A stretch of 52,488 bases of DNA. Origin: Nemertoderma westbladi. Its lineage: Eukaryota > Animalia > Xenacoelomorpha. The notes under the pieces were generated by a model. The model worked only from the letters and a program-made list of their open reading frames with translations. It was not told where the DNA came from and made no database searches. The stretch's first letter is position 1, and every line of letters starts with the position of its first letter. Where the stretch lies: contig JAUCBJ010006643.1 of the NCBI GenBank assembly GCA_032718475.1, positions 1 to 52,488 on the forward strand, read 5' to 3'. Positions 7,470 to 49,925 of this stretch are shown one piece after another. The position numbers and the translations under genes were made by a program.

Positions 7470-7590
7470 CATGAGGATCCAGTTACTATAAAATTAAATC
7501 AAGATGACTTTGTTGGTGACGATGTGTTGTTGGTCACTGAGAGTCAAGTGAAACGAATCAACAATGCTTATAAGTTGAGTAAAGGTTTAA
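7470..7590 (+). pseudogene. Short fragment resembling a Polinton/Maverick (adintovirus-like) small core-type protein
   Basis: Translates as HEDPVTIKLNQDDFVGDDVLLVTESQVKRINNAYKLSKGL, which fits the V-x-I-x-L...G-x-D-x-L-x-x-T-x-x-Q...AY...KG pattern as I recall it from Polinton proteins. Confidence 0.5.
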
Positions 7591-8154
7591 ACAAAAGCAC
7601 AAAAGTATAAAATTTAATGCTTGACTATTCAAAATTATTTTCCTTTGAAGACCAGCACCAATGGAATCATGTATAGAATATATTATCACGCAGGTATTTG
7701 AATACATTTTCGAGAGTACAATAGAGGTGGCCCATAACTTGAACACTCCCTAACCTATGTGTCTTACAGTTTAGTTTTACTGGAAAAGATTCGGTAATGA
7801 CACTATAAGCCCAGATTTCGCCATTAAACCCAGAGATCTTTGCGGCCTTAATGATTCCTGTCATCTCCCACTCTCCCACAAATGCATCATGCATGGCTGT
7901 GTCTGTATAGTCACTACGGATAATTCGGAAACCTTAACTGATGATAGGTCGTGCAATAATTTTGAACTCTTCTCCATTTTCAATTCTCTAGTGTTGTAGT
8001 GTTGTGGCATAATTATTATTATTATATTCTTTAATTCATCCAAAACAATAAATTTGTATCAAGAAAACTAATTGCTGGACATAAGCAATGGTCCTACAGT
8101 AAAATAATTATTTATTTAAATGAACTAAATATGTATGTATGTAGCACAATATTA

Positions 8155-8844
8155 TTAATAAATAGTAAGCATTGATTTCCACCGGGAGCCAGTAATACAA
8201 TTGTTAACAATAGCAATAACTGAGCTATCACTTGAGTCTAACCTTCTAGTTATGCTGTCAATTGATTGAGCACGTAAATGAGTGAACATTGGGATATTGT
8301 TCATTCCAAAAAATAATGACATGCTAGACCTAAACGGTATTTTGAAAAATAAACGTGCTGCCTTATTATACGCTACTTTAAGACGATTGTATACAGAATT
8401 TGAATAATTTAAACGACACCAAAGTGCATTGCAATATATCGGGGTTATAAATGAAATAAATAATAACTGAGACAGTTTCAGCAGGAGACACGCTACATCA
8501 GAACTCGCTAAGTTAAACGGCGGGATATTACTGAGACAGGCAGGAGTAAAGCGAGGTTTTCTCTCATCGCTCAACTCAACAAACAGCGAGCACTCAAACA
8601 TATCGATAACGTCGTTCACAATTGACTTACGCATTCCCTGACCTGATTTCCGTTGCTTAGAAAATGCCGCAGTGCTCTTATTACCAGGTATGCAATCTTG
8701 GAGGAGTTTCTTCGCTTCCTTCAACATTTCATCGCTAAACTTTGACCAGTTTTCCACAACATCAATCAGAACCGATCGTGGAAAACCCATTGTGACGTGG
8801 CCGCACCAAAGGTATGACAATACATCACTTCCACATGTCTGCAT
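8155..8844 (-). CDS. Internally deleted CR1/L2-group LINE: in-frame fusion of ORF1 N-terminus and ORF2 C-terminus
   Basis: aa 1-127 resemble CR1-group ORF1 N-termini (LKEAKKLL, IVNDVIDM, PRF..CLSNIPP...DVACLL). aa 128-229 resemble the RT ORF2 C-terminus (IYCNALW, LKVAYNKAARL, RRLDSSDS). An AATAAA-rich tail lies near 8110. Confidence 0.65.
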   Translation of the reverse strand: MQTCGSDVLSYLWCGHVTMGFPRSVLIDVVENWSKFSDEMLKEAKKLLQDCIPGNKSTAAFSKQRKSGQGMRKSIVNDVIDMFECSLFVELSDERKPRFTPACLSNIPPFNLASSDVACLLLKLSQLLFISFITPIYCNALWCRLNYSNSVYNRLKVAYNKAARLFFKIPFRSSMSLFFGMNNIPMFTHLRAQSIDSITRRLDSSDSSVIAIVNNCITGSRWKSMLTIY

Positions 8845-10825
8845 TCGTTACTCAACGTATTATCCGTTCCAACCGTGCAACTGTACCGGTAACACGGTTT
8901 TAGTGCAGTATGCTTATCTGTATATCTAAACCAACGGTAGTACCTACAGCAGTATAGCTAGCAGTACAGATACAAAGCAAACAGATACTAAAAGCAATTC
9001 TTTTCTTCAATTCAATTCATAAGATGCTATAGATCCAGTTTGCCCAGGGCACACTCTGATTGCTGCTACACATGCTTCCATGAAGCCACCCCACATGTAC
9101 AAATTTGGTGGTGGCACAAGGCAGGAACAGGCTTTGCACTGACATTTCCATTTCAAGCAAACCATACAAATAGCAGTTTTCGCCTGAATAAAATCCAGCG
9201 ATTAGTAAGATCCTCGCTACTTTGACCACCTCTATTGGTGTCTTCAGGCGCAGACCAAAGAACATTTTTAAAGGACTCTTAGCTGTGCCTCCTCTAAGCG
9301 AAACTGTAGGATGTTCGATGCATTCCCATCCCATTTCAGTAACTAGGGCACGAATAGCTTCCAGTAATACTATTCGAGTCATTACCGGGTGTTTATTCAG
9401 GAGTTCTGTTAGTGACAGCGTTTTTCCTTTCTCATAAGTAACAAATCTTCGAACCAACAGTCTTGTTAGTGCCATTTTTTCCAGTTTAAAAGTTTTAGTT
9501 GAATTACTAATCACTATAGGCTAGCCTATCTGACATATAACTAGTTAAGTTGTTCGCGTTTAAAAGTGAGTTAGTTGATTACTAGGAGATGTTTCGATAA
9601 CAACTGTTGAAAAGCTGTATTGAAAAAATGTTTTAATATTAACAGGTTAATATTAACATTATACAGTAGGACAATATAATAATAATACCCACCCAATGAA
9701 TTGTGAGACGGGATGCTCAGGGATCTGGTTACAGGTACAGTCCCAATCCCAATAAACATTAACTTGGTCATTTTGGCGGCCAAAACGACCAAAATGGCCA
9801 AATATAAATTGCGGCATTCATGAAAGGAACTTCTGAGGCAAGTTGGCTTGGCTTGTCAATCAAAGCCAGTGAATAGAGGCTGAGTGTAAGTAAAGCCCAG
9901 GATGTTGGCAGATAGAAAAAGGCTTCAATTTCCGGACATTCCCTCCCCAACCCCCCCCCCCCCCCCCCCCCCGGACAGTTCCATTCCGTTCGAGTAGGAC
10001 ACTACTGTTTTATATTTCGCACGTTTATTTTTCATTTTGTAAGGTAAACGGACCGCTTGTATCCAGACAAGTTGTACAGTATCCAATTTCCCTTTCTTAG
10101 CTCAGAAATTTATATTTTGCATCCCGATTTTACATTTTGTATCCACGTGTTATTTATGGATTTCATCAATTCAATTACACTGTATTGTTTGCTAATCTTT
10201 AAACAATTAATTAGATGACCTATATATTCCATCTGTTTCTCCTGTTCAAAGCAAAATCTAATCATGAATACTTTTTCACTGTAACTCGTAACTCAACCAA
10301 TTGGTCCTTTTTCGAAGAAATCCTACATGGGCATTTTGGAGCTAACCCGCCACTACTGCTTGGCTCACTGGAAGTGTATTTAGGTAAAGCTCTATTGTAG
10401 GCTGTGGCTCTGTTTAAGCTTAGCTGAGCCAAGACGACAGACATTTAGGATGGGAACACGAACATACCATATTATCCTTCCCCTATTCATTTCAATGGTA
10501 GCCAGCTTGTCTTTCCCACACTGGGGGTAGACCATTGCCATTGGTTAGCTGTATGCTATTGTAATACAAGGAGAGCGGCAGGATAAAGGGAAATGCCAAC
10601 CTCACTAATAAGGGGCTGGTCCCACAGGTCACTTTAAGGTAGGGGGTACAGTAGGTACTACAGTTTACATGTTCAAGGGCGTCAGTCCCTAGTCGCTAGC
10701 CCATAGTCTGTCATGGAGTTCCTGTTGTAGTTTCAGGCGCTTTCACTCAGTATCCTAGTGTCCAGGAAGTTGGGAGTTGAGTGTGGGTGGGTGGATTGGT
10801 GTCCCCCACGCAACACCGCAGTGTC

Positions 10826-12183: not shown

Positions 12184-12224
12184 CCACGTACGCGTTTCGA
12201 CCTTACTGGGTCTCATCAGCGTAC
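12184..12224 (-). ncRNA. Minimal type I hammerhead ribozyme (Penelope-like element type)
   Basis: The minus strand reads TACG-CTGATGA-GACC(CAGTAA)GGTC-GAAA-CGCG-TA-CGTGG: intact CUGANGA/GAAA core, 4-bp stem II, palindromic ACGCGT stem III and a GUA cleavage triplet. Confidence 0.8.
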
Positions 12225-12441
12225 TACTACTAGTATCGGCATGCTGCATTGCAGCTGCATTTTTAAGAATGCTGTGCCGGCTTGTCGACAAAATTGCGCC
12301 GCCACAACTCCCTATCACCCATGACATTTGCTAGATCATCCGCATCTTCAAGGCCAGTGTCCTTTAAGATTCGTCTCAAGAAAGTCATGGGCTGTCCACC
12401 ATGCTTATTTACTCCATGAGGCTGCCAAAGTACAAGATTAT
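12222..12441 (-). mobile_element. RTE-clade LINE 3' fragment
   Basis: Near-identical reverse complement of 12751-12970, with a (TAG)n tail. Confidence 0.85.
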
Positions 12442-12581
12442 GACAAGAATTGACTTTTCAATGTTGATTAAGCATCGCTCTGACTTGGAAAATTGACGTG
12501 TTTACATAATTCGACTTTGCACAATTGTTTATTATGAGTAAAACTATAATGGGTAATTTTGACCCAAACAGCCCTTTGCGT

Positions 12582-12978
12582 CGTCGAAGAATGCTACGCC
12601 GGGTACATTGTGTCAAGTACAATGCACACATCTCCAACCAGACACTATATAACATTGGAGGTGTCTCATTGGTTCCCCCAAGCTTGACACTAGAACAAAA
12701 TCGCCTCCGCTTTGCAGGACATTGCTTTCGCCGTGAGGACCAGCCAGTGCATAATCTTGTACTTTGGCAGCCTCATGGAGTGAATAAGCATGGTGGACAG
12801 CCCATGACTTTCTTGAGACGCATCTTAAAGGACACTGGCCTTAAAGATGCGGATGATCTAGCAAATGTCATGAGTGATAGGGAGTTGTGGCGGTGCAATT
12901 TTGTTGACAAGCCGGCACAGCATTCTTAAAAATGCAGCTGCAATGCAGCATGCCGATCCTAGTAGTAGTAGTAGTAGT
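12582..12978 (+). mobile_element. 5'-truncated RTE-clade LINE with TSD
   Basis: ORF motifs RMLRR, ISNQTLY, RLRFAGHCFR, LVLWQP and DRELWR; (TAG)n tail; 12-bp TSD AGCCCTTTGCGT at 12570-12581 and 12979-12990. Confidence 0.9.
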
Positions 12979-20311: not shown

Positions 20312-21999
20312 GCAAATGATGGACAATGTGGAGCCATTAATGTAAGTTTATTAGTTATTTTAAATTATTATTTTAAATGTAATTTCATGCTATTTCATAG
20401 ATATTGTAAATGGTGACAAAGTTGAGTTGAATTCATAAAAGTTATAAAAATATTTCCTAACAGGTTACAGAGCCGGAAGAACAGAATACAGAGTTGAAAG
20501 AAAATATCAATGGGTTGAGTGACCAAGTAAAAGATATACTTACAAACCTAACTAACCAACTCAATGAACTAAATAACGATGTTAGTTTCTTAACCAGTAA
20601 TTATTTGTAACATAATTTGCTAAATTTAACTTCATACGATTTCATAGATATTGTAAGCGAGTTGAATTAATAAAAATTTATAAAAATATTTCCTCACAGG
20701 TTACAGATTTGGAAGAACAGAATACAGAGTTGGAAGGAAATATTACACAGTTGAGTGACCAAGTAAAATACTTAAATACAAACCTAACTAACCGATTCGA
20801 TGAGCTAAATAACGATGTTAGTTTCTTAACCAGTAATTATTTGTAACATAATTATTTGCCGTGTTGAAGTCCTTCAGTTTTTATTGATGTATTATGTTTT
20901 TATTTATTTGTATGGAATTAATTTCGCACTACCAAATCGCCAGGCCGACATATTTCCTAACTTTATATCGCAGTGCGACATTATTTCTCAGTATGTCCCT
21001 ACGCCATGTATTTCAGTATATCCAGTATGTCACCGCGTCATTATTAGGTTGTTCTAGAAAGTTTAAGTGCAAAACTACGAATAATTCCACCACATTAAAT
21101 CTTTTACGGCCCTCGTTCTATTATTTCACTAAACAAAATCACTCGTGCCGTAACGCTATAATGTGCTATTTTATGAGCAACGACGTAATATAGTTAGTAT
21201 TTAATTGCTCTACATGTTGGGTCGAAATGCCGGCGTTTAATGATTTCCCTAGAGAACTCCAACCCAACCACTGATCAGATGTGTGCAGAGGATTTACAGA
21301 ATTTAATAAATAATTTCAATTAATAATATTTCCTAACAGAATAAAGAGTTGGAAGAGTTCGTTTACAGGTTACATGATATATTGAATTCATCCATTACAC
21401 TGTATCAGCAAATGGCTCCTGGGCTATTAAAGCATAAAGATGGGGTGAAGATTCAACAAAGAGTTGATGGATCTGTTGACTTCTATCGAAACTGGGATGA
21501 ATATGTTGAAGGATTTGGCGACCCGAATACCAATTTTTGGTTGGGGTTGGAGACGATCCACAAGCTGAGTTACGGCGGTGTGAAGTTAAGAGTCGATTTG
21601 TGGTTCACTGGATCGGGACGGGTAGATCCCAATAATGGGGGAAATCGTAATACAAAGAAATACACCAACGAACACAAATACGCGGAATACAACAACTTCT
21701 CTATCGGATCAGCTGCAACTAATTATCGCCTACATGTATCCGGTTACCACGGTACTGCTGGTGACTCATTGGAGTGGCGGCAAAACGGTCAGCCATTCTC
21801 TACCAAGGACCGCGATAATGACGGGTTGGACTCCGCCAACTGCGCCGTAGAACATACTGGGTCGTGGTGGTACAAGTACTGCCCCGCGGACAGTAACTTG
21901 AACGGAGAATATGGTGGGGGGTGGAGGAAAGGACCTTATTGGGCTCATTTTACTATAGGGAATCCGGCTTCTCGAGTTGAAATTAAGATTTGGATTTAG
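20312..21999 (+). CDS. Coiled-coil + fibrinogen C-terminal domain (FReD) protein; exons 20312-20341, 20464-20580, 20700-20816, 21340-21999; first exon uncertain (possibly 19677-19718)
   Basis: AG/GT boundaries, all phase 0, give one open frame. FReD motifs QQRVDGSVDFYRNWDEY..GFG, FWLGLE, YRLHVSGY.GTAGDS, FSTKDRDND, NCA and WWY..C..SNLNG. Confidence 0.9.
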
Positions 22000-26184: not shown

Positions 26185-28868
<2,684 letters not shown>

Positions 28869-31145
28869 GTGATACTTCTTCTAGTGTTAAATTAACCGCA
28901 GATTCCAAATACAGTGACCGTTTTTACATATATTTTGTTCTTATGGAGATATTGGGGTTTAAACATAACGTATTTGACATGAATTGAAAAATGAGTTGAA
29001 AAATTAGTTATATAAGAATTAATTATTGGTAATGTCAACAACTGATATAAACAAAATATATTAAACATACAGTTATATAACATAATATCAGTTCGGGTAA
29101 ATACGAAGTTACATCAGCAATTAATTATTAAGCAGCACTAATAATAATTGTCATTCGAATCTCTTTAACAGTTTTATTAAAATCCCAGACAGTTTATTAC
29201 TTTCCTTTGCGGTTCCAAGATCATAACAATAGAGTAGAAACTCGTCCCTTGGCAGTGTTTGTGGTAGTAGCTGCATTGTTAAGAGCTTCTAAATGTCGTA
29301 GTCTGTTCTAAAAATAAAAATAATAACCATAAGTTTACATAGATCGTTTATTAGTACAAACAAATACTAATACTAATATTGTATTAACTGATATAGTTGA
29401 ATGTTGAACTGATTTTAACATTTATTACAAGGAACTGCAATAACTTATCAACTTTAAATAGTTTTATTAAAAGAAGCAATCCAGAACACAATGCAAAATA
29501 TAAGTATATGTAGTGAACTAGAATGTAATTAATTCAACTGTGCGATCCAACTCAACCAGGTTTATTTTCATTCCGAAGATGAATTCTCTCCATAGCTGCT
29601 CTCCTACTAACACAATGAACCGGCCCATAGAGATTCATTGACATCGGGAAATTCAAGGATTCTCATCGGTTGGCCGCCTCCATATCCCAGTTGATTTATT
29701 TTGTAAAATTGTAAATTAATAATTTGATGAACAATATTCTTATTGTTGTCTATAAAAACATGTGTACCTTTCGTTCTATTAAGCGAAAATTTATGTTTGA
29801 TAGCTTAAAAGAAAGCTACGTAATTCAGGATTATTAATATGTAAAAAACTCTTTATAACTCCTATGGGAAGTTACTCGTTAATGTGATTTTATATAAAAT
29901 GGCATTACGACCAGGTCGCGTTGTGATTACGTAACTCCGTACGGCCACATTTACTATCAGTTTCTGGGGATAGAAGGCCAATATATCATTTCGATTTGTA
30001 ATTTTTCTTATGAAGTAAGTTTGGTGATTGTCCTATATACTTTTTAATGTACTTTCCAATAGCAGAGGCACGTTATTCTAACCAAAACAATAAACTAAAG
30101 TTATTTTCGTCACCCCCCCCCCCCCCGCCATTAATTAGATACAATCGGCTAATTAAACCAGATGGTTTACCCGCTTCTCAATCTCTGCCAGCCGGTTGAG
30201 AATAAAATAAATATAATATTATTTACACAATAACATTAATTATTGTTTATAACATAAATGTTTGCTGATTATCTGTTATTGATATGACATCGACATTTTT
30301 CCAACTAACATTACAGGCCCACTAGATCACGACATACAAACAGCAGCTCAATTACTATTAACTCATATTGCCTACCAAACGGTCTAGGTACCAATGGAAT
30401 GTTCACTTTATTTTACTTGTAATCTAATGTAATGTAAAGTAAACAACGGACGAGGTTATAATATATTTGGCCGGCTGGAATCCAATCCAAAGTTATTTTC
30501 CTCTTCAATTTCCCTTTATATTTTTCGATTCAACTCGGTAAAAAAAATAGTTTTGGTTCGATTATTCGGCCTTTCGATTTGAATATTAAACTTTATTTGA
30601 CAGTAAATAATTAATTGTTTTTCTCATAAACTACATGATTTTTTATATAATATTCTCGATTCTCGATAGTCGATTGGACCCCAGTCTCTTAAAACAAACA
30701 ATCTTACTAACATTTGGCTGAAATCTCCAAAAAAACGAATAAAAGAGCGACAGTAACCTAGGTAGTTGTCAGTGAGTCTGTAATCTAGGTAAGTTGGGTT
30801 TTATTAACTCAATTAATGCCACATATGTGGCACAAACAATAATTTACATTGTAATTAATTATGTAGAAAATTGAGAATTCTAAAAATCTCATCAGTAATC
30901 CAACTTACTAACACAAACAATATAGAAGATAAGAGATAACGAGATAAATACATAACAATATTATAAATTCATATTGAGGTGAGCGAATTTATCGAGTTAA
31001 TAATAGGCTGAAATAAACATCTCGAACTATAGAGAGAGAATTATTGATTTTGTGCTTTTTAGATGTTCAAATTTGGAATTTTAAATGTGAAGGTTTATAT
31101 CGCAGCAGAAACGTTGTTGGAATGTCGTTACGTGTCGCTCACAGA

Positions 31146-31779: not shown

Positions 31780-34700
31780 GAATGAATTAATAGATTTATT
31801 TATACATTATGTAAAAACAATAACAAATACACCAAACAATGTACCGGTATAAAGGTATTGTCCAACATAACATATAGGATTACCCCTAAAGCTTTGCAGC
31901 TTATTTCCAAGGGGGTCCTTTATGTTACTTGGTTACAAATACAATATTACACTACGCTAACCTAAAACCCATATAAAACGTAATTACACTATGTACATGT
32001 ACAACTTTACCGAGAGCGTGACAATGCCCGACTCAACGATAAAGATACACAAGGTACAGAACAATTTATTATAAAACGTAATTACAGTATAAATAGTAAA
32101 TAATTAATAAACTAATAACTTACTGTAGGACTATTGTACCTATTTTTACATTGCACACGGAGATGAGATTTAACTGCAGATTTAAAAGAATGTTGATTAT
32201 TTAGGTTTTTAATTTCATTAGGCAGAGCGTTCCAATTTTTTATGCCGTTAAAAAAGAAAGTATCAGATTCAAAGGATTTACAATTCGGGAGGTAGAAGTT
32301 TGAAGCACTAGCTCTGGTACTGTAAGAGTGTGTATCGCGTACTCTGTTGAATTTTTGTTTTAGGTAATTGGGACATTTACCATTATACACTTTATGCACA
32401 TGGTTAAGGCGTAGCTGCTTAACTCTACTATCTAAGTTAAGTAGTCCAGATTCAGAAAAGTCATCTGGAGTTAGGTGGTGCCTAGGTTTGTAGTCTTTAA
32501 TAAATCGTACTACTTTATTCTGAGCTACTTGTAATTTACATTTAAGCTGTTTGGTTAAGCCTTCATACCAAGAAGAGCATGCATAGTCCATGTGACACTG
32601 TATTAAAGAAGAGCAAAGTAACTTGCGGGAGTCGGTGTTCAAACTATTTTTATTTCTGTATAGAAACCTAAGCCTACTGTTAACTTTCGAGAAAATATTT
32701 TTCACTGTACTTTCTCCTGATAAGCAGTTATCCAATGTGGCGCCTAAATATTTAACTTCCTTTTTATTTTCAATCTTATGTCCATTACTAGTGACTTCAA
32801 ACTTAGTTACCTTCTTTAACTTTCTTTTGGAACCAAACAAAATACTTTCAGTTTTACCGTAGTGAATGGATAGCTTATTATCAACCAACCACTCATTACA
32901 GGATTCTAGAACTGCACTTAACTTTTGGGAAATATGGATAGGATCTTTATGAGAGAAAATAAGAGCACTGTCGTCGGCATATAAAATGAGTTTAAAATCG
33001 GGATCTATACTACTTATCATATCATTTACATAGCATACAAAAAGCAGAGGACCTAATATACTACCTTGCGGTACACCACAGGTAATCTCTTGTACAGTAG
33101 ACAGCGATTTGCTAATGACTACAGTTTGACCTCTGTCTGACAGGTAGGACTTGAACCAGTCTATAGAACCTACACCCATCAGGCCTAACTTACCAAGCAG
33201 AATTTCGTGATCTACAGTATCGAAAGCCTTTTGTAGGTCCAACATTACCATACCAGTATATAAACCCTTTGCGTTATTACATCTAATTGTATCAGTTAAG
33301 TTAATAAGGCAGGTGTCTGTAGAATATGATTTACGAAAACCGGACTGAAGTTCATAGATCAGATTTAGCCTACTAAGATGTGCCTCCAGCTGTAGAAAAA
33401 CAGAACGTTCTAGAATTTTAGATACAATACTTAAGATACTAACAGGTCTGTAATTACAGGGTTCTACTTTACTATTCTTTTTATACAGAGGAACAACCTT
33501 AGCTAATTTCAGTTCGTCTGGTACTACATTATCTACGATAGAGTAATTAATAATAAAAGTAATAGGCACTTTAAGTACTTCAGCACCATCCTTAAGAAAA
33601 CGGGCAGGTATTAGATCTAGACCGGTACTTTTTGAGGCTGATAGGCTAAGTAGATTTTTAAAAACGAAATCCTCAGAAACGGGTTTTAAAAATAACTTTT
33701 CTGAATTTTGTAACTTTTCTAAATAAAAATTATTTAGAGTTTCGGACCCTATACTATATTTATTACTTGATAACGGTAACTTCTTAACTAAATTAGAGGC
33801 AACATTAGTAAAATAATTATTAAATAAATTACTAACTAGAGTATGATCATGAATCAGCTCACCGTTATCTTGCAGAACAATATTCGATTTAGATTTAAGG
33901 TTTTTATAACCTAAAGATTTTAGGGTAGACCATAGACTTTTAGGATTATCTTTATTCTCACTTATTTTGTTGTACAAATATTCAGATTTAGCTTTTTTTA
34001 TTTCCCGTTGGACAAGGTTTCTATATTTGCAGTAATTATTATAATCAGCTAAAACACGGTATTTCCTAAATTTATACAAATAGTTATCTCTTTCTCTGAT
34101 ATTACTAAGAATACCCGAGGTCATCCAGGGCTCAGTGCGTTGTTTAAGACTAATTTCTTTAATTGGTGCTACAGTATTAAGTGCCTTTAAAAATATATCT
34201 TTAAAAACAGTGTACGCAAGGTTAATGTCAGTGGCCTTAAAACAGGGTTCCCAGTCAGAATTAACTAACAAACTTAAAAAGCGTTCCTTGCTGTAATTTT
34301 TCATAGACCTAACTGTTACTGTTTTATGATCCCCGAAAAAAGATTTTTGTGTCTTTCTTGTGCAAAAAACTATAAAATGATCGCTTAGACCTATAGGTAA
34401 AACCCCAGATTGAGAAATAATATCGGTATTATTACAAAGGATGTGATCTAGTAAAGTAGAAGTTTTACTGGTAATTCTGGTAGAATCTCGAATAATTTGT
34501 TTTAAACCAAACAAATTTAAAATACTTTGGTACTGTTTACAGATGGGGGATGCTTTGTGATGGTAACAGATATTAAAATCACCTAAGAAATATATTTCAC
34601 AGTCTGACCTAAGATTACATAAAATTGTATTTTCAAAATTTTGCAAAAAATCTGATTGTTTAGGGGGCCGATATAAAGTACCGATTAAAATAGGTTTAGT

Positions 34701-35770
34701 TTTAGGAAGTAAAAGTTCCACCAGTAAAACTTCGTCACAAGTCTCTAAATCTTCCCTACGATTAAAAGCTAAATCACATCGAATGTAAGTACAGACACCA
34801 CCACCGTGTCTGTCCCTATCCTTACGTAAAACTACGTAATTATCAATATAAATTTCTCCATCAGAAACACTATCATCGAGCCAAGTTTCAGAGATTGTTA
34901 AAACTGCTGGGTTGGATTTATTGATTAAAATACGAATTTCGGAAAGTTTTGGAAGCAGAGATCGTGCGTTTAAGTGCAAAAAATGCAAACCTTTTTTCTT
35001 AAAAAAATTAAAAGTTTCACTCTCAGCATCACTTGGAGTTTGCAGAGGCGATGTGAGAAATGAATCGTCGGTTTCTGATTCTAAAATTGTATCATGAAAG
35101 GGAAGTTCGGTAAAAATACAGCTATTGCAGAGAAAACTTGGTTCAAGATTGTTTCTGGTGGAGAATAAATTACTGCGTTTCCTACGGTAACATTTTAAAT
35201 GTACAAATGTGTCACAACTCTCGCATTGGACGATCTTACTCCGAGAGTTTGTTCCTCGTTGACAGACGGGACAGTTGATCTTCGGGGCCCGCGTCCTGCT
35301 GGGTCCTGGGTTGGTCTCAATATCCCCAGCCAGAGACAGTAGACAGAGTTTAGCGATTAGGCCTCTAGATCGTGGAGAGGAGACCCAAGATCTTCTTCCC
35401 CGACGAGAGCAGTAGAGGCTAAATCCACTCGTCGACCACATCTCCGTCGATTCGGCGCGGCAGTTCGAAACGGTAGCGACAGGGTGTTCCGTAAACCAGT
35501 CCAATACGGGTATTGGGTGGGTTGCAGGGTTACCCCGCGGATCGGATGGTTCTGCCACAACGAAACGACCCAGAACGATGAAAACTGTGGAGATTAAGAG
35601 CGGGGACATTGTGCTGTCTGGCTGTAGTCTGACTCAGGGATAAAAACTGTATAGGCCTAGTACCGGTATCTTACTTGGTCTTATTGTCGGCAGGCCTACA
35701 GCTTGGTTCCGCCCCCCTTTTTGAATTAATAGTCCTTGCAATAACAAAGGATGGCGTCGTCCCGAAACAC
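31780..35770 (-). mobile_element. CR1/L2-group non-LTR retrotransposon, apparently single-ORF (boundaries approximate)
   Basis: Intact pol ORF, ~320-bp 3' UTR ending AATAAA..TTCATTCA, no ORF1 seen upstream. Confidence 0.8.
32112..35609 (-). CDS. LINE pol: hydrophobic leader, 2A-like peptide, PHD finger, APE endonuclease, reverse transcriptase
   Basis: 1165 aa with no stops. DIETNPGP; CPVC..CESC..HLKC..CNSC; HLNARSL, SETWL, YRPP, GDFN, LDHI, SDH; [33 protein letters not shown]. Confidence 0.97.
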
Positions 35771-37039: not shown

Positions 37040-39480
37040 ATACTGGTATCGGTATCGGTGAATTAATATCGACATTGATTATTAATATTGGCATCGATAT
37101 TGGTTATTGTAATTGGTATCGATATTGGTTATTTATATTGGTTATGGATATTGGTTATTGGTTATTGGTTATTGATATTGGTTATTGGTGTCGATATTGG
37201 TTATTGATATTGGTTATTGATATTGGTTATTGATATTGATTATTGGTTAGTGGTTATTGATATTGGTTATTGGTTATTGGTATCGATATTGGTTATTGAT
37301 ATTGGTTATTGATATTGGTTATTGATATTGGTTATTGATATTGGTTATTGATATTGGTTATTGATATTGGTTATTGATATTGGTTATTGGTGTCGATATA
37401 GGTTATTGATATTGGTTATTGATATTGGTTATTGATATTGATTATTGGTTAGTGGTTATTGATATTGGTTACTGGTATCGATATTGGTTATTGATATTGG
37501 TTATTGATATTGGTTATTGGTATCGATATTGGTTATTGATTATTGGTTATTGATATTGGTTATTGGTATCGATATTAAAAAGGTTATTGATATTGGTATA
37601 GATATTGGTTATTGATATTGGTTATTGGTATCGATATTGGTTATTGATATTGGAATCGATATTGTGTATTGATATTGATATTGGTTATTCTTTATTGGTT
37701 ATTGATATTGGTTATTGATATTGGTTATTGGTATCGATATTGGTTATTGATATTGGTTATTGGTTATTGATATTAGTTATTTGTATCGATATTGGTTATT
37801 GATATTGGTTATTGATATTGATTATTGGTTAGTGGTTATTGATATTGGTTATTGGTATCGATATTGGTTATTGATATTGGTTATTGATATTGGTTATTGA
37901 TATTGTTTATTGATATTGGTTATTGGTTATTGATATTGGTTATTTATATTGGTTATTGATATTGATTATTGGTATAGATATTGGTTATTTATATTGGTTA
38001 TTGGTATCGATATTGGTTATTTATATTGGTTATTGATATTGAATATTGGTTATTGGTTATTGATATTGGTTATTGGTATCGATATTGGTTATTGATATTG
38101 GTTATTGATATTGATTATTGGTTATTGATTATTGGTTATTGATATTGGTTATTGGTATCGATATTGGTTATTGATATTGGTATCGATATTAAAAAGGTTA
38201 TTGATATTGGTATAGATATTGGTTATTGATATTGGTTATTGGTATCGATATTGGTTATTGATATTGGAATCGATATTGGCTATTGATATTGATATTGGTT
38301 ATTGTTTATTGGTTATTGATATTGGTTATTGATATTAGTTATTGGTATCGATATTGGTTATTGATATTGGTTATTGGTTATTGATATTGGTTATTGGTAT
38401 CAATATTGGTTATTGATATTGGTTATTGATATTGGTTATTGATATTGTTTATTGGTTATTGATATTGGTTATTGGTATCGATATTGTTTATTGATATTGA
38501 TATTGGTTATTGATATTGGTTATTGATATTGGTTATTGGTTATTGATATTGGTTATTGGTATCGATATTGGTTATTGATATTGGTTATTTGTTATTGGAT
38601 ATTGATTATTGATATTGGTTATTGGTGTCAATATTGGTTATTTATATTGGTTATTGATATTGATGATTGGTTATTGGTTATTGATATTGGTTATTGGTAT
38701 CGATATTGGTTATTGATATTGGTTATTGATATTGGTTATTGGTTATTGGTTATTGGATATTGGTTATTGACATTGGTTATTGGTATCGATATTGGTTATT
38801 GATATTGGTTATTGATATTGGTTATTGATATTGATTATTGGTTATTGATATTGGTTATTGGTATCGATATTGGTTATTGATATTGGTTATTGATATTGGT
38901 TATTGATTATTGGTTATTGATATTGGTTATTGGTATCGATATTGGTTATTGATATTGGTATCGATATTAAAAAGGTTATTGATATTGGTATAGATATTAA
39001 AAAGGTTATTGATATTGGTTATTGATATTAGTTATTGGTATCGATATTGGTTATTGATATTGGTTATTGATATTGGTTATTGATTATTGGTTATTGATAT
39101 TGGTTATTGGTATCGATATTGGTTATTGATATTGGAATCGATATTAAAAAGGTTATTGATATTGGTATCGATATTGGTCATTGGCATCGGTTATCAGTAT
39201 CGGTATTGATTATTGGTATCGGTTATTAGTATTGGAATTTATTATTGTTATCAGTATTGATTATTGGTATTGGTATTGGTTATTGGTTTCGGTATAGATT
39301 ATTGGTATTGGAAATCGGCATTGGTATTGATTATTGGTATCGGTTATCGCTATCAGTATTGGTATTGGTTATCGGTATCGATATTGATTATTGGTATCGG
39401 TTATTGGTATTGATTATTGGTATCAGTTATCGGTATTGGTATTGATTATTGGTATCGTTATTGGTATCGGTATTGATTAT
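37040..39480. repeat. (ATTGGTT/ATTGAT/ATCGAT)n satellite, dominant 13-bp unit
   Basis: Direct inspection; grades into the ACTGGT array over 39170-39490. Confidence 0.97.
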
Positions 39481-39483
39481 TGG

Positions 39484-41579
<2,096 letters not shown>

Positions 41580-41581
41580 TC

Positions 41582-43057
41582 CTCAGCTACAGTTCTAGTT
41601 GGTATAAGACCAAGAAACTAGTGGCGTATTGGAGAGCCTTTGGGAATTTCCTTGCGGGAGTCGGCAAGGACAAGAAAATCAGGACAACCATAGATCTGGA
41701 GGGAGCGGCCAAGGCAGTGATCCGCTATGAACAACGGAAGAACTACGGCGACGAGGTGGAACGCGTCGGTAACCAACAGCACCTCCGACGGGACAGCGAG
41801 CTGATAACGCTGTCGCCACAACTCAATGACGACGGGATTCTAGTAATGAATTCTAGGGTGGGATACAACAACAGCATAGTGGTACCACCGAAACCCATCA
41901 TCATTCCTACAGGATCGCCAATAGTCCACCAGATTATATGGGACTCCCACAAATCGATATTGCATGGGGGCACCAACCGAACCCTCACAGAGATAAGGAG
42001 GACCTATTGGGTCAAACAATTAAGGAAGAAGGTTAAAGCGGTAGTGGGGCAGTGCCAGACCTGCCGACAGGCGAAGAAGGAGCGAGCCATACAGGAGATG
42101 GCGCCACTACCGGCGAGTAGGGTAAGACAGCACAACCCGCCATTTACGCATTGCGGTGTGGACATGTTCGGGCCGATAAAGATCAAGGTGATGCGACACA
42201 CGGAGAAACGCTACGGTATTATCTTCGTATGCAACAATACGCGGGCGGTAGGGATAGAACTCGCCCAAGATGCAACCGCATCAGCGTTCATTAACGCCTT
42301 AGAAAGGTTTAGGGACCGCAAAGGTGGGACGATCGCAGTGATATACAGCGACAATGGCACCAACTTTGTGGGTGCAGAGAGTGAGATGGCAGAGGCCCTG
42401 GACATCTTGGAGGGGGAAGAAGTCAAGGCAGCCATGAGGAGATGTCAAGTAAAGTGGGAGAGACGGACGCCGTATGCACCACATACACTGGGATGCGTCG
42501 AGAGACTGGTGGGCAGTTCAAAGCGTCTAATGACGAAGCTAATGAACACCCACATGGTCACTGAGGACGTTTTACGGACAGTACTTGCGAAGTGCGAGGG
42601 GATCATTAATAGCAGACCGCTATATCCGGAGAATGATGACCCTGAGTCGTTAGACGTGCTGACGCCTCGCCATTTCCTGATGGAAAGGCCAGCGACCATC
42701 GATATGCGGGGTGTAGACCCAGATGACATACACTCCCGCCAAAGTTGGAAAGTCGCTAAAGCAATAAGCGCAGAGTATTGGAGGAGGTGGGTCGAGGAAT
42801 ACCTACCCACGCTCCATAAGCGAAGCAAGTGGAGGAAGCCGAACAGGGAGTTAAGAGAGGGAGATCTCGTAATCGTCACGGATGATACTATCATCAACAA
42901 CCAATGGCGGTTGGCGAGAGTTGTAGGCACCTACTCCGACGAGGACGGAAGAGTCCGATCGGTAGAAGTGCGAATAGGTGGAAAGATAGGTGCGAAGGAC
43001 AGAAAAACTTACAGGAGAGCTGTAGGGAAATGCTGTCTTCTAGAAGGGGCACCTTAG
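41582..43057 (+). CDS. Bel/Pao pol C-terminal part: integrase (HHCC, DDE) + DUF5641-like tail
   Basis: [88 protein letters not shown]. Confidence 0.95.
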
Positions 43058-43179
43058 AAGTGGAGTTAGTGCGTTGTTTAGTCGTCCAAGTTTTGGACTG
43101 AGGGGGGTGGGATTGAGGGCGAGACGCCCTTCCCACATATAAAATTTGCAAAATAAAATAAAAATAAATAATAGTACAT

Positions 43180-43810
43180 AGTAGGTACGCAGTTAGTAGG
43201 CAGAAGGTACGTTGTACCTAGTTAGTCAGTAGGTACGTAGTACCTAGAGTTAGTTAGTTAGTTAATAGGTACGTAGTACCTAGAGTTAGTTAGAGAGTTA
43301 GTAAGTACGTAGTACCTCGTTAGAGAATTAGTAGGTACGTAGTACCTAGTTAGAGAGGCAGAAGGTACGTTGTACCTAGTTAGTCAGTAGGTACGTAGTA
43401 CCTAGAGTTAGTTAGTTAGTTAATAGGTACGTAGTACCTAGAGTTAGTTAGAGAGTTAGTAGGTACGTAGTACCTAGTTAGAGAGTTAGTAGGTATGTAG
43501 TACCTAGTTAGAGAGTTAGTAGGTACGTAGTACCTAGTTAGAGAGTCAGTTAGAGGGTACGTAGTACCGATAGTTAGAGAGTTTGAGGGTACGTAGTACC
43601 AATAGATAGTTAGAGAGTTAGAGGGTACGTAGTACCGGTAATTAGAGAGTTAGAGGGTACGTAGTACCGATAGTTAGAGAGTTAGAGGGTACATAGTACC
43701 GATAGTTAGAGAGTTAGAGGGTACGTAGTACCGATAGTTAGTTGGAGAATTAAAGGGTACGTAGTACCGTTAGTTAGAGTTAGAGTTAGAGGGTACGTAG
43801 TACCATTAGT
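43180..43810 (+). repeat. Array of ~20 palindromic GGTACGTAGTACC units with variable TTAG/GAGA-rich spacers
   Basis: Period ~25-37 bp; ~158-bp higher-order duplication (43199 vs 43357). Confidence 0.95.
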
Positions 43811-44311
43811 TAGAGAGAGAGAGAGTAAGAGGTAGAAGGGTATATAAGATATAGATATTAGTTAGCAGTAAGTAGCGTTAGTAGCGAGAAGGGGGGCATA
43901 TGAGTACAGCTGGGTAAATCGTGTGGCCACACGACGTATACTGCTGTACTACATAGACCCACAGAGTAGGCCAGAATGTGGATTAGAGAATAGAATAATC
44001 CATAGACAGTAGTAAGTAGTAGGACAGTAGAATCGAAGTAAATAGAAAATAAATAAAATAGGGCTAAAAATTGTAGAATAGTGGCAACACAAGGGAAGTT
44101 ATTCTGGAACATAATAAAAGTAACGGACAGAAATCGAAATTAGGGTGTATTTACTAGCTTCAAAATTAATTAGGAATAATTTAGGTTAAAAGGCGCAGTT
44201 AAGTAGGAAGTAGGCCATTATCGAACTGTATAGAACATCCTAGATACATCACTCATCTGTATTGCGCCTTGGTAAGGCACCACCTTGCAGGTGAGCGAGT
44301 GAACGTTCGGA

Positions 44312-46861
44312 ATGGCGAGTAAGTTGATCAGAAAGAGAAAGGCGGAGTCAGGAGGAAAGGAGATACTGGTGGATTTCACCGAGAGACATCCGGAAGAGAA
44401 GACGAGAGGATACTACGAGAGGTTGGAAAGGGGTCACGTGGCACGAGCGCTGCAGGATCACTTCCGGGAGGCGCACGAACAGCGGCTGGTCGGGACCTAC
44501 GGGACCCCGTCGCTAGACAACGCGATCTTCCAACACTTCCACTATGTGGTGAAAGGGGACGAGGCAAAGTTCGGGATTCCGAAATACCCGAGGGAATCAC
44601 CGAGGAAGGACTGGAAAAGATTCATAGAGTCCGTCAACAGAGGAGGATATATGATCCTGGATGACGAGGGAACCGTGGAAGACGAAGCGGGTTCGAGACG
44701 AGGAACGGCAGGGTCGGCCAGGACCATACTCCTACATTTGGCCGCGCCAAATGGGGACATCTTCTTATTCGACCTAGGGACGTATGGGAAGAAGGACGGG
44801 CCGAAATTAGACCGATTACCGAAAGCGGTACAGGTCTTAGTAAGAGAGAAGTCGACGACGAAAGTGGGATCGGCGATTCGCGAGGACGCGGAGAGGATCA
44901 TCGGTCCGGACGCCACCAACCTCCTGGATATGCAGAAGGTCTTTATGGCCATGACGGCACCGGATGGATTGGGGGTAGTCGAAAACACAGGCCAATGCGG
45001 GGCGGTGGCGATGGGCCAATTATTGGGGCTCGTATGCCACAAACCGATGGACTGGGGGAAGTTTAGGGAAGAATACGGAGCAGAACTAGCGAACTCGCTA
45101 AAGTGGGGAGCGAGACCGGGAAAGCAGGAGGTATATCAGTTCCGCAGGGGAGCGATAAAGGTATATCAGAAGAGATATATCCTGCAGGAGGACTGGATAA
45201 TGATAAGTTTGCTTAATTTATTCATGACCGTGATTATTGAGAGGGAACCAGGGGCATTTCTGTTATTGGGATCACCCCTAAGCTACAGGAGAGCCTTTAA
45301 AGTGGCCTTTGACGGTCTGGTAGACCACCCGGGGCTGAAGGGCGAGTCGGTGTACTACAACAGCCGACATCTGGTAGACGGGGAGACAGATACACCATAT
45401 CAGAGATGGGAGCAGCTAGAGACGGATAGACGAGAAGCAAAGCGACTGGAAGAAGTCGCTAGACGGGAGAGGATAGAAGCAGAGGAGAGGGAAGAGGAGG
45501 CCAGGACACAGAGTTACGGCTTCGAGGAACAGGCGGGCCTAGACGAACTTCATTGGACTTCGTCAGGGAGTTCGGGGGAGTCTCTAGGGCGAGAATTGGG
45601 ATGGACGGTGGGATCGCCGAAACAGTCGACGTCGGGGTTGCAAACGATGCCCATACCAGCGGGCGCCGAGGGCGACCAACCGCCAAGGAAGTTAAGGGAG
45701 CTAGAGGGATGGAGAGCTACGGGCGAGAGCCAAGGCGGGAAGGGACACAGTGGATCCATCGGGATACCGGGATTGGAGACACTACCAGACGAGGAGGACG
45801 ACGACGACGAGTTCGGAGAGATGCCGCCCATCGAGAGGATAGGCCACTCGGACACGGACTGGGTTGGCGGAAGGGTGGTGACGGCCAGTGGGGCGAGGGC
45901 CTTCTGGAACAGATCCGGCAAGCGGACCTGGGTGCACGAGGAGCCGGCGATGGATTTCGCGGGGAGCACCATCAGGTTGGGCGAGCAACCGGGGACGGCA
46001 CCACGGATAGTATTCGGGGAGACGATGCCCGAGAGGGGCGGAGAGATCGACGTAAACAGGGAGACCAACGTAGAGAAGTTCGCCTACCAGCGACTCCACA
46101 GACCGCGGAGATCGCTTGGGACGAAAGACGAGGTGGGACGGGAGACATTGGTACTCGGCTGCGACTACTGTGGGAGACAGACCCACCGGGAAAGCAGCTG
46201 TCTATACCGGTTCCAAAAGGGAACCTTTTGTCTCTACTGTAGAGAGCCAAGCCACAGGATGGGGGCGTGTCCACGGTTGCATAACCGATGTCCAAAGTGC
46301 CACTTTCGGGGACACTACGGACGCGAGTGCGACTGGATGAACGACGAGGAGAAGTTCACGAGATTCGAGGAGTGGGCCGACGTCGGGGCCATGACGCGCC
46401 AGCGCATGAAGGCCCAGGAGTTCAAGTGGGGTTTCTTCCTTATCAATCAGGAGACTCACATGGAAATCATAAAGCGGAGGCTACCGTTTACCTACCAAGA
46501 GGTAGCAACGGCGGCGTCGTACGCTGGAGTGATGAACACGCAAAGGTATCTGGACAGGTGGACGCCAGAGAACCAAAGGGAGTTTAGGGATTTCTTGGCG
46601 GAGCACGTACCAAAGGCAATGAAAATGATCCTATGGGACGCCACTAGAGGGAGACAACCGGGCCATTCTGAGGGACCACCGGCGAAGCGATATCGGGCAC
46701 TAATAACACCAGCGCCCAAGGAGCCAACGACCGGGATCAGCAAGGAAGTGGCGGCGAAGGTCCGAAAGCAGAAAGCGGATGATGCCAGAGGAACGGTGAT
46801 AACCAAGAAACGGCCCAGGGAAGAGGACGCCAGGGGGAACTACCCCCGGAGGAACAGATAG
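44312..46861 (+). CDS. Retrotransposon accessory protein: DEDDy-like 3'-5' exonuclease + acidic linker + three CCHC zinc knuckles + basic tail
   Basis: 849 aa, ATG to stop. ExoI-like MILDDEG, LLHLA...FLFDL, LP..V..LV....TTKVG..IRED (ExoII), LLDMQ, ExoIII-like Q.RYILQED. Knuckles CDYCGRQTHRESSC, CLYCREPSHRMGAC and CPKCHFRGHYGREC. Confidence 0.85.
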   Translation: MASKLIRKRKAESGGKEILVDFTERHPEEKTRGYYERLERGHVARALQDHFREAHEQRLVGTYGTPSLDNAIFQHFHYVVKGDEAKFGIPKYPRESPRKDWKRFIESVNRGGYMILDDEGTVEDEAGSRRGTAGSARTILLHLAAPNGDIFLFDLGTYGKKDGPKLDRLPKAVQVLVREKSTTKVGSAIREDAERIIGPDATNLLDMQKVFMAMTAPDGLGVVENTGQCGAVAMGQLLGLVCHKPMDWGKFREEYGAELANSLKWGARPGKQEVYQFRRGAIKVYQKRYILQEDWIMISLLNLFMTVIIEREPGAFLLLGSPLSYRRAFKVAFDGLVDHPGLKGESVYYNSRHLVDGETDTPYQRWEQLETDRREAKRLEEVARRERIEAEEREEEARTQSYGFEEQAGLDELHWTSSGSSGESLGRELGWTVGSPKQSTSGLQTMPIPAGAEGDQPPRKLRELEGWRATGESQGGKGHSGSIGIPGLETLPDEEDDDDEFGEMPPIERIGHSDTDWVGGRVVTASGARAFWNRSGKRTWVHEEPAMDFAGSTIRLGEQPGTAPRIVFGETMPERGGEIDVNRETNVEKFAYQRLHRPRRSLGTKDEVGRETLVLGCDYCGRQTHRESSCLYRFQKGTFCLYCREPSHRMGACPRLHNRCPKCHFRGHYGRECDWMNDEEKFTRFEEWADVGAMTRQRMKAQEFKWGFFLINQETHMEIIKRRLPFTYQEVATAASYAGVMNTQRYLDRWTPENQREFRDFLAEHVPKAMKMILWDATRGRQPGHSEGPPAKRYRALITPAPKEPTTGISKEVAAKVRKQKADDARGTVITKKRPREEDARGNYPRRNR

Positions 46862-47564
46862 GTTCCCAGAGTCGAGGGAGAGAGACTGGGACTTGGACGT
46901 GGTACGCCTGGCAGGCGCCGCGCGGGATGTACAAACTATTAAGTACAAATTCAATTAATGCAAAATAATCATATAAGTGCAATTTGTATGTACGTACGTA
47001 GTAATTAGTAATCTAGAAATATACATACGTTCGGAGTAAGTACTATAGTCATACAACCTTTCTCAATTAGCTACTGGGACTGGGGGATAACTGACTATGG
47101 CACTATGGACGAGACACCAGACAATTTCACACTTCTTGAGTGCGACGGCACGAGAGGGGGGGGGGGAGATTCGTCAGAAGGGAAGAGACAGTCGAAGTGA
47201 GGTTGAGGGACGGAACAATAGTGCGGAGTGCGGAGAGAGTGCGGACGCAATTCTAGTGTGGGGGGGGAGAATAAGAGGCTGAGCGAGGGACGAGGAGGTC
47301 CGAGTGTGAGAGAGTTAGGGTGAGAGTGAAGGTGAGATAGGGCGGAAGTGTTGGGGAAACAAAAGTTGCGTGAAAGGTGAGCGCGATCGGCCCGACATGA
47401 GACGCCAGGCACACAGGGTAGCGTTATCATACCCATAGGGGGCGGCCTGGAAAGCCGACCCCGAGAGAAAAGAATTCCACCCCACGCCCGATACTAGATC
47501 GGGATCCAGCGGGATTGTAGCGCACTTTTTGGTTGATGCTATCTTCTTACCGGGAAGATAGCAT

Positions 47565-47573
47565 GGGGGGGAG
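47565..47573 (+). promoter_or_regulatory. Polypurine tract
   Basis: GGGGGGGAG immediately before the TGT start of the LTR. Confidence 0.75.
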
Positions 47574-48102
47574 TGTTAGCTTATCCAATCCCGCTAACAC
47601 CCCATAAAGTTGTAAGCCGATAAGCAATATTGGGAGCCACGAGATTGGATAGTTAACCAACTCGTGCCATCCCAATAAGAGTGGGAAGGAAGCACACAAT
47701 AGAGGGTCAGGGGCCAAACCCCTAACCCAGAGAGAACAGGTGGAGTGAACGGGAACACTCCACGGGGCGCCAACAAGGGTATCAACCAATCAGAGGGGGG
47801 CAAGGCATCGATTAGGTAGTAATTAGGCCAACCGTGTAATATAATCAGTAACCTATTAATCAGTAATTCAGTTATCTCAAGTGCAGTAGTGCTAGCTTAG
47901 GTTAGTTAGTTTAGATAGGGGAGCACGGGACTTTTAGTTACCGTATCCCGCCTTCCACATATCTATATCTATATCTATACCCATCGATTATTATACACCG
48001 AACATCAGAACTCATTCACCGTTTCGTTTACTCTTTATACACGGCGGGGACGCGTAAACTAAAATACCGGATAAATCGGGATCCCTCCTGGATCCCGTCA
48101 CA
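47574..48102 (+). mobile_element. 3' LTR
   Basis: TGTTAGC...CCGTCACA; follows the PPT; homologous to the LTR at 1377-1790. Confidence 0.8.
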
Positions 48103-48309
48103 ATACTAGGCCCCTATCCAATGTAACACCACCTTTGCCTTCCGAATTTTTAATCGGTCAGGTGAAATGTTACCAAATTAAATTTTCACCAGTTTACAAA
48201 TACATATTAGAAAAAGGTTACAGTAGGATACAGGGTTATGTTACATCATGTTACCTAACTGTGACTTATACATTACTACCCGTGCATGGGGTCATGTAAC
48301 AAACTAGGT

Positions 48310-49925
48310 CTACTACTACGATCGGCATGCTGCATTGTAGCTGCATTATATATATATGACATATATATTAAGAATGCTGTGTGCAGGCTTGTCGACAATA
48401 TTGCGCCGCCACAACTCCCTATCACCCATCATCACATTTGCTAAATCATCCCTATCTTTAATGCCAGTGTCCTTTAAGATGCGTCTCAAGAAATTCATGG
48501 ACTGTCCACCATGCTTATTCGCTCCGGCTCCATGAGGGCGCCAAAGCACAAGAATATTCACTGGCTGGTCCTCACGGCGAAAACAATGTCCTGCATAGCG
48601 GAGGCGGTTCCGTTCAAGTGTCAATTTAGGGGAGATTAATGGAACACTTAGATAGAGTCTAATTGGAGATGTGTTAATTGTACTTGACCCAATGAACCCG
48701 ACTCAGCATTCTTGTGAAAGTGCCATCCAGAGATTTTTTTGTTTACGTTTAAATATGAAGCGAGTTTGATGTCGTTCGCCATATGCTGATATGATAAAAG
48801 GAATTTGTTTTACTTAGAATCGTGGCTACCCTTACAACACCAATATAATTCGATTTTAATCCAGAGATTTGGTATACAGCGCAGCATGGACTCCCATATA
48901 AGAGTAGGCCTACTGGTACTACTGCTTCCATTACTCTAGTACTGCTCTATTCTATTATTATAATTTTTTGTTGGGCACAACGTTTTGCAAAGTCGGCAAT
49001 GACGCCCAGGTGGTATCGAACTGGTGACCTCATATACTGCCACTGTGCTCAACCCTATCCCCCACAAAAAGTTATAATAATATTCATTCACCCATAACAC
49101 AATAATAAATTATAAATGTTATTCTAAGGGACTTCCAAATCGTGAGCAGACTATTTAATGCTGCCCATGCCTTCCCCTTACGTATCCGAAGGTCTTCACC
49201 TGACTTTCTGATCTATGATCCCAAAGTAGCAAGTAGTCATCCACGACCTCAAGCAAGCCGTCCCTAGAGCTTACGCCCTTACGATCAGACATTTCTTGAG
49301 GGCTGTCTAGGTTGATTTTGGTCTTGGATTCTTCTTGGATTCTTACAAAAAGACCAACACTGGAAGCAACCTGCTCCAATGAGTAGAGGAGCCTTTGGGC
49401 TCCCTCTAGTGATTCTGAAAGTACCCATAAGTCATCAGCAAAGTCTAGATCAGTAAGGTACGTTGCTGGATTTCCTTTACTTCTTATGCCAGTAGGGGGT
49501 GTCACCATAACCCCATCTTTATTAAGATGGTCTAAGGACATGCGTAGAGCATAATCAACCACAATTACGAATAAACATGGTCTGATATCGTAAAGTGACC
49601 TGATAGCTGCAATAATTTCCTCAGGAATCCCATATGCTGCCCGTTTGCTGAAGATACGTGGTCGGGAGATAGAGTTGAAGGCTTTAAAGAAGTCAACAAA
49701 GATAATAGCCAGTTGTCTGTCTTTCTTTCTTTATTGATAACTCTTCGATTGTCCTTTTCAGAGCCAGAATAGGCTCCATTGTCCCACGGCCTTTACGGTC
49801 TCTCAACAGGATCCCTGATGCGATAATAGAATTCTGTTGTATAGCTTTGCAGCAATCGAGATTAACGAGATTCCACTAAAAGATCCACAGGTTGTTAGGA
49901 TGCCCTTCTTTGGGGCTGGGTGGGA
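48310..49925 (-). mobile_element. Degraded RTE-clade LINE (same family as the 12.2 and 12.6 kb copies)
   Basis: RLRYAGHCFRREDQP, LDFADD, and PKKG..GISLISIAAKLYNR remnants; (TAG)n tail at ~48310; frameshifts; a foreign stretch at ~48750-49130. Confidence 0.88.

Follow-up and report, generated by a model that had tools for sequence, protein, structure and literature searches.

The extra open reading frames known from Bel/Pao (Belpaoviridae) elements are env-like, and what third genes other than env do in LTR retrotransposons has been a question since 2017. In that year, the bdelloid rotifer LTR retrotransposons Juno and Vesta, along with Athena/Terminon elements, were reported to carry a DEDDy exonuclease as ORF3 (Rodriguez, Kenefick and Arkhipova 2017, PMC5408684), and these genes are mentioned again in the accessible parts of two reviews (PMC5718144, PMC6431247). 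According to the accessible text of the original study, the rotifer proteins are RNase D-like with a DEED motif, are common to several element classes, and gave no selection or copy-number signal (PMC5408684). A cellular counterpart is the RNase D of Trypanosoma brucei (TbRND; PDB 7C42-7C4C), a mitochondrial guide-RNA trimmer in which a DEDDy exonuclease is followed, after a 28-aa linker, by four CCHC knuckles; in the available portion of its description this array binds RNA and boosts U-tail trimming (PMC7797062). Human EXD2 (PDB 6K17) is described, in the text accessible, as a host enzyme with an N-terminal membrane anchor (PMC6648332).

The locus presented here lies in a window of 52,488 nucleotides, the whole analysed stretch of contig JAUCBJ010006643.1 of Nemertoderma westbladi, to which all positions without a locus label refer. 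New here is a Bel/Pao-borne module of an EXD2-like nuclease and three zinc knuckles, termed ORF3 in the following, which is conserved across a broad lineage; DEDDy ORF3 genes as such are already known from rotifers, as the initial annotation had stated correctly (PMC5408684, as far as accessible). Compared by description, both kinds of ORF3 encode a putative DEDDy 3'-5' exonuclease after pol and have no transmembrane segment. The Bel/Pao protein differs in its DEDD/DEDE motif, a triple CCHC array, a further conserved domain and its descent with pol, whereas a knuckle array is not mentioned in the accessible text of PMC5408684. With TbRND it shares the order of DEDDy exonuclease and CCHC array, but it has three knuckles, a linker of ~270 aa and an extra domain at 15-17% identity, and the likeness is probably one of convergent architecture. 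From EXD2, the best profile match for the nuclease domain, it differs by the missing hydrophobic anchor, the added knuckles and its location on a transposon. The gag-pol layout of Belpaoviridae is the same as in the relatives described below, so that the nuclease ORF3 is the difference. In a literature search that left subscription journals, Repbase and GyDB outside its scope and covered sources in part, neither a Bel/Pao nuclease ORF3 nor a transposon exonuclease-CCHC fusion was found, and the DEDDy ORF3 genes met in print were those of the unrelated rotifer elements. The early view that the fusion is an undescribed Bel/Pao module thus stands for the literature searched, but the architecture is not unprecedented, because trypanosome RNase D has it.

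The element copy in the window and its third gene

ORF3 is an unbroken frame between a Pao-type integrase on its 5' side and a polypurine tract and LTR on its 3' side, as had been proposed (Table 1). Upstream of it, the Pfam families Integrase_H2C2, rve and DUF5641 are recognized (E 1e-24), and this integrase with its DUF5641 C-terminus supports the assignment to Bel/Pao. It resembles Atlas clusters in which Arthropoda is the most frequent phylum, a weak pointer to the host. The distance from pol to ORF3 is 1.25 kb, with the tandem repeat inside the spacer. The 3' end of the element could be fixed at 48102, because the summed contig depth of three DNA runs, a measure that does not equal copy number, collapses at 48103 from thousands to about 26-52. 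Per run, 5,409 to 9,714 contigs of these three data sets align to 43830-48330, which indicates that ORF3 is part of a highly repeated family; no contig of the DNA runs bridges pol to ORF3, and full-length copies of this family were not encountered. The copy in the window is devoid of gag, RT and 5' LTR, and a second LTR of the element is not present within the window. As a GGTACT satellite replaces the 5' part and the second LTR is absent, the copy is truncated and ORF3 alone is intact. The initial description as a Bel/Pao retrotransposon with an intact extra gene therefore holds for the gene but not for the element.

Table 1. Positions of the element parts and of ORF3 features in the window
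Feature	Position	Strand	Details
GGTACT-type satellite replacing the element 5' part	39488..41579	.	
Pao-type pol, C-terminal part (end of RNase H region, integrase H2C2, core, DUF5641)	41636..43060	+	stop at 43058-43060
Tandem repeat, unit 30-36 nt, in the non-coding pol-ORF3 spacer	43170..43830	+	
TATATAA, alternative internal-promoter candidate	43841	+	putative
Candidate splice acceptor CCACCTTGCAG	44276..44290	+	AG at 44289-44290, 21 nt before the ORF3 ATG; putative
ORF3, single open frame, 849 codons (849 aa)	44312..46861	+	exonuclease, low-complexity linker, three CCHC knuckles, conserved C-terminal domain
Predicted DnaQ/DEDDy 3'-5' exonuclease domain, EXD2-like (about aa 61-343)	44492..45340	+	D117 (44660), E119 (44666), D192 (44885), Y289-x3-E293 (45176-45190)
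Three CCHC zinc knuckles (aa 617-673)	46160..46330	+	exact C-x2-C-x4-H-x4-C, starting at C617, C640, C660; motif and alignment
Conserved helical domain 3' of the knuckles	46331..46600	+	FE-x-AD-x-G-x2-T ... WGF motif
Polypurine tract	47565..47573	+	sequence
3' LTR, 529 bp, TGT...ACA	47574..48102	+	5' edge from polypurine tract, 3' edge from depth drop

The catalytic residues and the three knuckles lie where they had first been noted. D117, E119, D192 and Y289 are kept, and the fourth catalytic acid is E293, a D-to-E variant of the ExoIII motif Y-x3-D. In the full-length alignment of 31 sequences there are 12 invariant columns, every one of them inside the knuckles. Hydropathy detects neither a transmembrane segment in ORF3 (best 19-residue Kyte-Doolittle mean 1.45, within the ExoIII helix) nor a signal peptide (-0.43 at the N-terminus), in line with the original remark that an env-type architecture is missing. 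Having no membrane features and only nucleases as structure matches, ORF3 was ruled out as an env, and it was also ruled out as a displaced gag, as the gag of relatives retains its own knuckles. A Pfam search of the window protein gave no match, and as this holds for 57 of 57 ORF3 proteins (E 0.001), the protein is easily overlooked in annotations.

Fold and nearest relatives of the nuclease

In the AlphaFold model of ORF3, pLDDT values are mostly 80-95 in the nuclease core and the knuckles and below 50 across aa 403-611. The N-terminal domain is modeled with an RNase H-like DnaQ fold (Foldseek E 1.4e-05) and the model matches only DnaQ-like nucleases, with T. brucei RNase D as the best Foldseek match. 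The VIA-align comparison with the EXO domain of Nibbler results in a Z of 13.5 at an rmsd of 3.4 over 204 aligned residues; as NrnC and T. brucei RNase D tie with it (rows within 1 Z), the structure settles the superfamily, not the subfamily. In the profile of 31 full-length members, human EXD2 is the best match (E 1.7e-12), followed by Egalitarian, WRN (E 1e-3) and T. brucei RNase D, which is also a weak sequence match to the knuckles. EXD2 is again best with a second alignment (3.8e-10 vs 1.5e-4 for WRN), in which ExoI, ExoII and ExoIII are in register. The attribution to DEDDy nucleases of the WRN/Mut-7/EXD group was thus right with regard to DEDDy, by fold and profile, but the nearest profile is EXD2, not Mut-7 or WRN. 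Judged by this profile ranking, the ORF3 nuclease is EXD2-like and not an EXD2: the N-terminal transmembrane anchor and the host-gene context of EXD2 orthologues are absent. The helical domain behind the knuckles folds confidently together with them (mean pLDDT 79.8), and a structure search with the C-terminal domain gave no clear match (best Z 3.7), which is no proof of a new fold.

Relatives behind Bel/Pao pol

Word-indexed protein searches are too insensitive here and did not return any relative, even with the family alignment. A protein search that is not word-indexed retrieved 78 proteins at E <=0.001, mostly via the knuckle region, and in 34 of these an N-terminal domain aligns with aa 80-330. 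The DNA motif of the knuckle region, which has one match in the window (0 expected), was found at at least 120 metagenome loci (about 300 estimated) and at 12 loci of a genome collection; a viral collection gave 0 matches. Since the scan used the knuckle motif, the survey covers only relatives with knuckles, and those without ORF3 or knuckles are invisible to it.

Among the matches listed, 92 loci have flanks that could be assessed, the remaining 40 being too short; 68 of the 92 carry the nuclease, 42 have a window-like integrase upstream, and 40 have both. Where more than 4 kb upstream is available, integrase and then exonuclease follow each other in 30 of 41 of the loci among these matches. 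The other 11 include six bacterial chance matches without a nuclease, three loci without an integrase (L005, L012, L022), and L047 and L059, in which integrase and knuckles occur without a nuclease. The relatives have one gag-pol frame of about 2,100-2,400 aa with Peptidase_A17, RT and integrase with DUF5641, and they possess a polypurine tract and an LTR. The Pao Peptidase_A17 (PF05380) was identified in 16 of 17 scanned polyproteins, the 17th being a gag-side piece, and BEL-type gag knuckles (CCHC-CCHC-CCHH) in all 12 relatives examined. In L023, remnants of ORF3 lie between two 797-bp LTRs that are 95% alike and end in CA; a PBS-like TGG follows the first of them. L033 and L060 each assemble as a 10.2-kb circle that consists of gag-pol, ORF3 and one LTR. 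The frame is hence found at the same place behind pol in dozens of other members of this LTR lineage. Fold, conserved acids and gene order all recur in divergent relatives, which is beyond chance, and as dozens of distant relatives keep ORF3 behind the core genes, it is likely an old and needed accessory part.

Several relatives deviate in detail. L047 (3341-6529, +) and L059 (6880-9648, +) are sister elements whose nuclease-less ORF3 proteins share their N-terminal part at 33% identity. L022 (5187-10931), a unit of ~5.7 kb bounded by repeats, has ORF3 yet lacks an integrase and may be a non-autonomous derivative, and L005, L015, L043 and L051 encode ORF3 variants of 1,300-1,600 aa with long N-terminal extensions that have no Pfam match. 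L124 (3542-9538, -) contains a deoxynucleoside kinase domain before the RT (polyprotein aa 583-778; PF01712, E 6e-46) and also bears the nuclease ORF3, the kinase being a second captured enzyme of nucleotide metabolism. L123, L124, L127, L128, L130 and L132 are eukaryotic Pao contigs in bacterial 'pond' MAGs and apparently mis-binned.

Descent and selection

Quick trees of ORF3 and of the integrase were compared for 32 elements that have both genes. Of the 14 starred integrase splits, 12 are found again in the ORF3 tree and none contradicts a split starred there; the patristic distances of the two genes correlate at 0.86 over the 32 elements, a value reached in 0 of 2,000 permutations. The window's element is a long branch without firm placement in either tree. 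The trees show no exchange of ORF3 between elements, as would be expected of a gene adapted to the element that carries it. Within the window family, 27 of the 34 variant sites listed for 44600-45250 are synonymous (10.8 expected), and the list contains neither an indel nor a change of a catalytic residue. Among nine close relative pairs, the nuclease dN/dS is 0.10-0.59, estimable in eight of them; these values are inflated, because the synonymous distance of ORF3 is lower than that of the integrase in most close pairs. Other copies of the gene are thus under purifying selection.

It could be argued that ORF3 is a captured host gene or passenger without a role for the element, as the copy in the window is truncated and immobile by itself and its expression is only deduced. 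We regard this as extremely improbable: tree congruence, selection and gene order contradict it, dozens of elements with integrases of about 30-60% identity share this position and architecture, introns are missing, and the complete lack of Pfam matches is unlike a recent host copy. That ORF3 is a real gene of the element, with its fold predicted by model and profile, a fixed place after pol, common descent with the integrase and purifying selection, appears to us almost certain.

Intact and catalytically dead forms

At 90% identity, 93 nuclease domains remain, which comprise 40 with D-E-D/E-D, six with E at ExoIII, 34 degenerate and 13 partial ones. All four acidic residues are therefore conserved in 46 of the 80 domains with a complete site, and catalytic residues are missing in 34. 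A DEED-like E at ExoII occurs in only a few members. The glutamate at ExoIII, present in six of the 46 non-redundant intact-site members, is a subfamily trait and not a private one, because five of the six forms cluster in one group that includes the window's (SH-aLRT 86). With the other four catalytic residues kept, E293 could thus be ruled out as a disabling private change, although it had been suspected to alter activity.

On the tree, the dead forms require eight changes, at least five of which are forced by starred branches, and starred clades with 17 and with 6 rows are among them; in the integrase tree, 13 of 14 dead forms make up a single starred clade. By this count, catalytic residues disappeared on at least five occasions from a gene that was itself retained. 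Trimming is not essential everywhere, because 34 of 80 domains are dead and yet dN/dS is 0.10-0.32 in three relative pairs with dead catalytic sites. This raises the alternative that ORF3 is mainly a non-catalytic RNA adaptor that, like Egalitarian, routes or protects the element RNA (in export, transport, germ-line entry or packaging), with any catalysis being incidental. The repeated losses under continued purifying selection agree with such a role, and so do L047 and L059, which retain the knuckle module without a detectable nuclease, and the occurrence of Egalitarian among the profile and structure matches, where its entries are complexes with RNA localisation signals, the one of the I-factor among them. 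However, the 46 complete domains retain all four acids even where they are only about 20% identical, which calls for selection on metal binding and catalysis, and the catalytic codons of the window family are unchanged by any listed variant, so that we consider a mainly adaptor-like protein quite unlikely.

Expression of ORF3

For the window's element, ORF3 may be made from a spliced transcript, for which a candidate acceptor lies just before the ATG, or from an internal one (Table 1). Similar acceptor-like sites precede the ATG in six of 51 relatives, all in one group that the integrase tree places close to the window's element (support 92, unstarred), although this set was picked after the sequences had been inspected. 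A splice joint was not seen in run X6, a run only guessed to be RNA, which speaks neither for nor against splicing. The window's own element has no readthrough layout.

Readthrough into an env-like ORF occurs in plant Sireviruses, and some relatives probably reach ORF3 by a comparable route. In 12 of 36 relatives, a count that is inflated by kinship, ORF3 is in frame with pol behind one stop and an open linker of 91-221 codons (0.7 expected from shuffles). The pol stops of these 12 are TGA in 11 cases and TGA-C in ten, with three TGA-CGG and two TGA-CAA-TTA, whereas the own stops of ORF3 are TGA-C in only five of 78; UGA-CGG and stop-CAA-UUA are documented readthrough contexts in the accessible text of PMC3159437. 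The sequence pattern makes readthrough no more than likely, because besides the kinship four further TGA-CGG cases are out of frame, three of the 12 in-frame relatives have later stops, and an ATG near the nuclease is retained in most elements, with one 37 codons before it in many relatives. The linkers are of low complexity and cannot be aligned except for 30-64 nt among four close relatives. The structure 3' of TGA-C stops is mildly stable (mean z -2.0, n=14, vs -0.7, n=22, mononucleotide shuffles), which we do not take as evidence.

Possible function

LINE-1 elements are restricted by uridylation, and the removal of host-added U tails would be one concrete form of the activity that ORF3 might have. 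As a whole, the best explanation seems to be that ORF3 binds RNA and trims 3' ends of nucleic acid that belongs to the element itself, a reading that we hold tentatively and at slightly below an even chance. The zinc knuckles would grip single-stranded RNA and pass its 3' end to the predicted EXD2-derived nuclease. While particles assemble and reverse transcription takes place, element RNA, primers or cDNA ends would serve as substrate, for example where they bear untemplated or host-added 3' tails. In relatives with readthrough, the fusion to Pol could carry ORF3 into the particle. The knuckle module may carry the main function, with the nuclease as an accessory that several clades converted into a binding surface devoid of catalysis. 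An action in cis is favoured because of the co-descent with the integrase and the likely Pol fusion, and the repeated loss of catalysis under purifying selection together with the likely readthrough shifts the interpretation further toward RNA binding and the own nucleic acid. Basic NLS-like clusters number 206 against 88 in shuffles, a 2.3-fold excess, and a nuclear role outside the particle would fit too. The stimulation of U-tail trimming by the knuckles of TbRND (PMC7797062, accessible part) is the described example of such a pairing.

Alternatively, ORF3 could be a suppressor of small-RNA silencing that over-trims or sequesters piRNAs, siRNAs or their precursors in trans. Its fold is common to the small-RNA trimmers Nibbler, EXD1 and RICE1, dead clades could still sequester RNA, the putative separate spliced message of the window's element would suit a free cytoplasmic or nuclear factor, and the host contains this family in highly repeated form (9,714 contigs in one run). 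On the other hand, likeness of fold cannot separate these enzymes and the profile favours EXD2 rather than a piRNA enzyme, the strict co-descent with the integrase and the likely Pol fusion in some relatives better fit a role in cis, and the rotifer DEDDy families are, in the accessible text, still covered by small RNAs without a clear gain in copy number (PMC5408684). We therefore think that a silencing suppressor is unlikely.

A wider proposal is rather doubtful: a whole Bel/Pao lineage would have domesticated an EXD2-derived nuclease with knuckles as a counter-defence or end-editing enzyme, delivered by splicing in some clades and by readthrough of the Pol stop in others, and repeatedly turned into a pseudo-nuclease. 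Together with the rotifer cases, a DEDDy nuclease as ORF3 would then be a third function that LTR elements acquired convergently more than once, one by which host-added 3' tails or small-RNA guides are removed. Should ORF3 trim such tails or small RNAs, an animal LTR element would counter host defence by means of an enzyme, which would be a rare case. The family offers dozens of diverged members with fixed architecture, purifying selection and co-descent with pol, as well as naturally occurring active and dead forms and two putative ways of expression. A single soluble protein and point mutants of it make the question of the third gene accessible to tests.

Further elements of the window

Long satellites of GGTACC/GGTACT and ATTGGTTATTGAT units occupy 26186-28869 and 37074-41579, and GGTACT arrays are present twice, one of them adjoining the truncated integrase. 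A non-LTR retrotransposon at 32112-35633 (-) has a single frame of 1,173 aa that combines a PHD finger, an AP endonuclease and an RT, and an RT fragment is found at 49155-49730 (-). A fibrinogen C-terminal domain exon or gene at 21337-21999 (+; PF00147, E 1.5e-35) is a marker of the animal host. An inverted-repeat element with arms of 221 nt (97%) lies at 12222-12970, and a partial copy of it, 80% identical, is located just past the LTR at 48310-48713.
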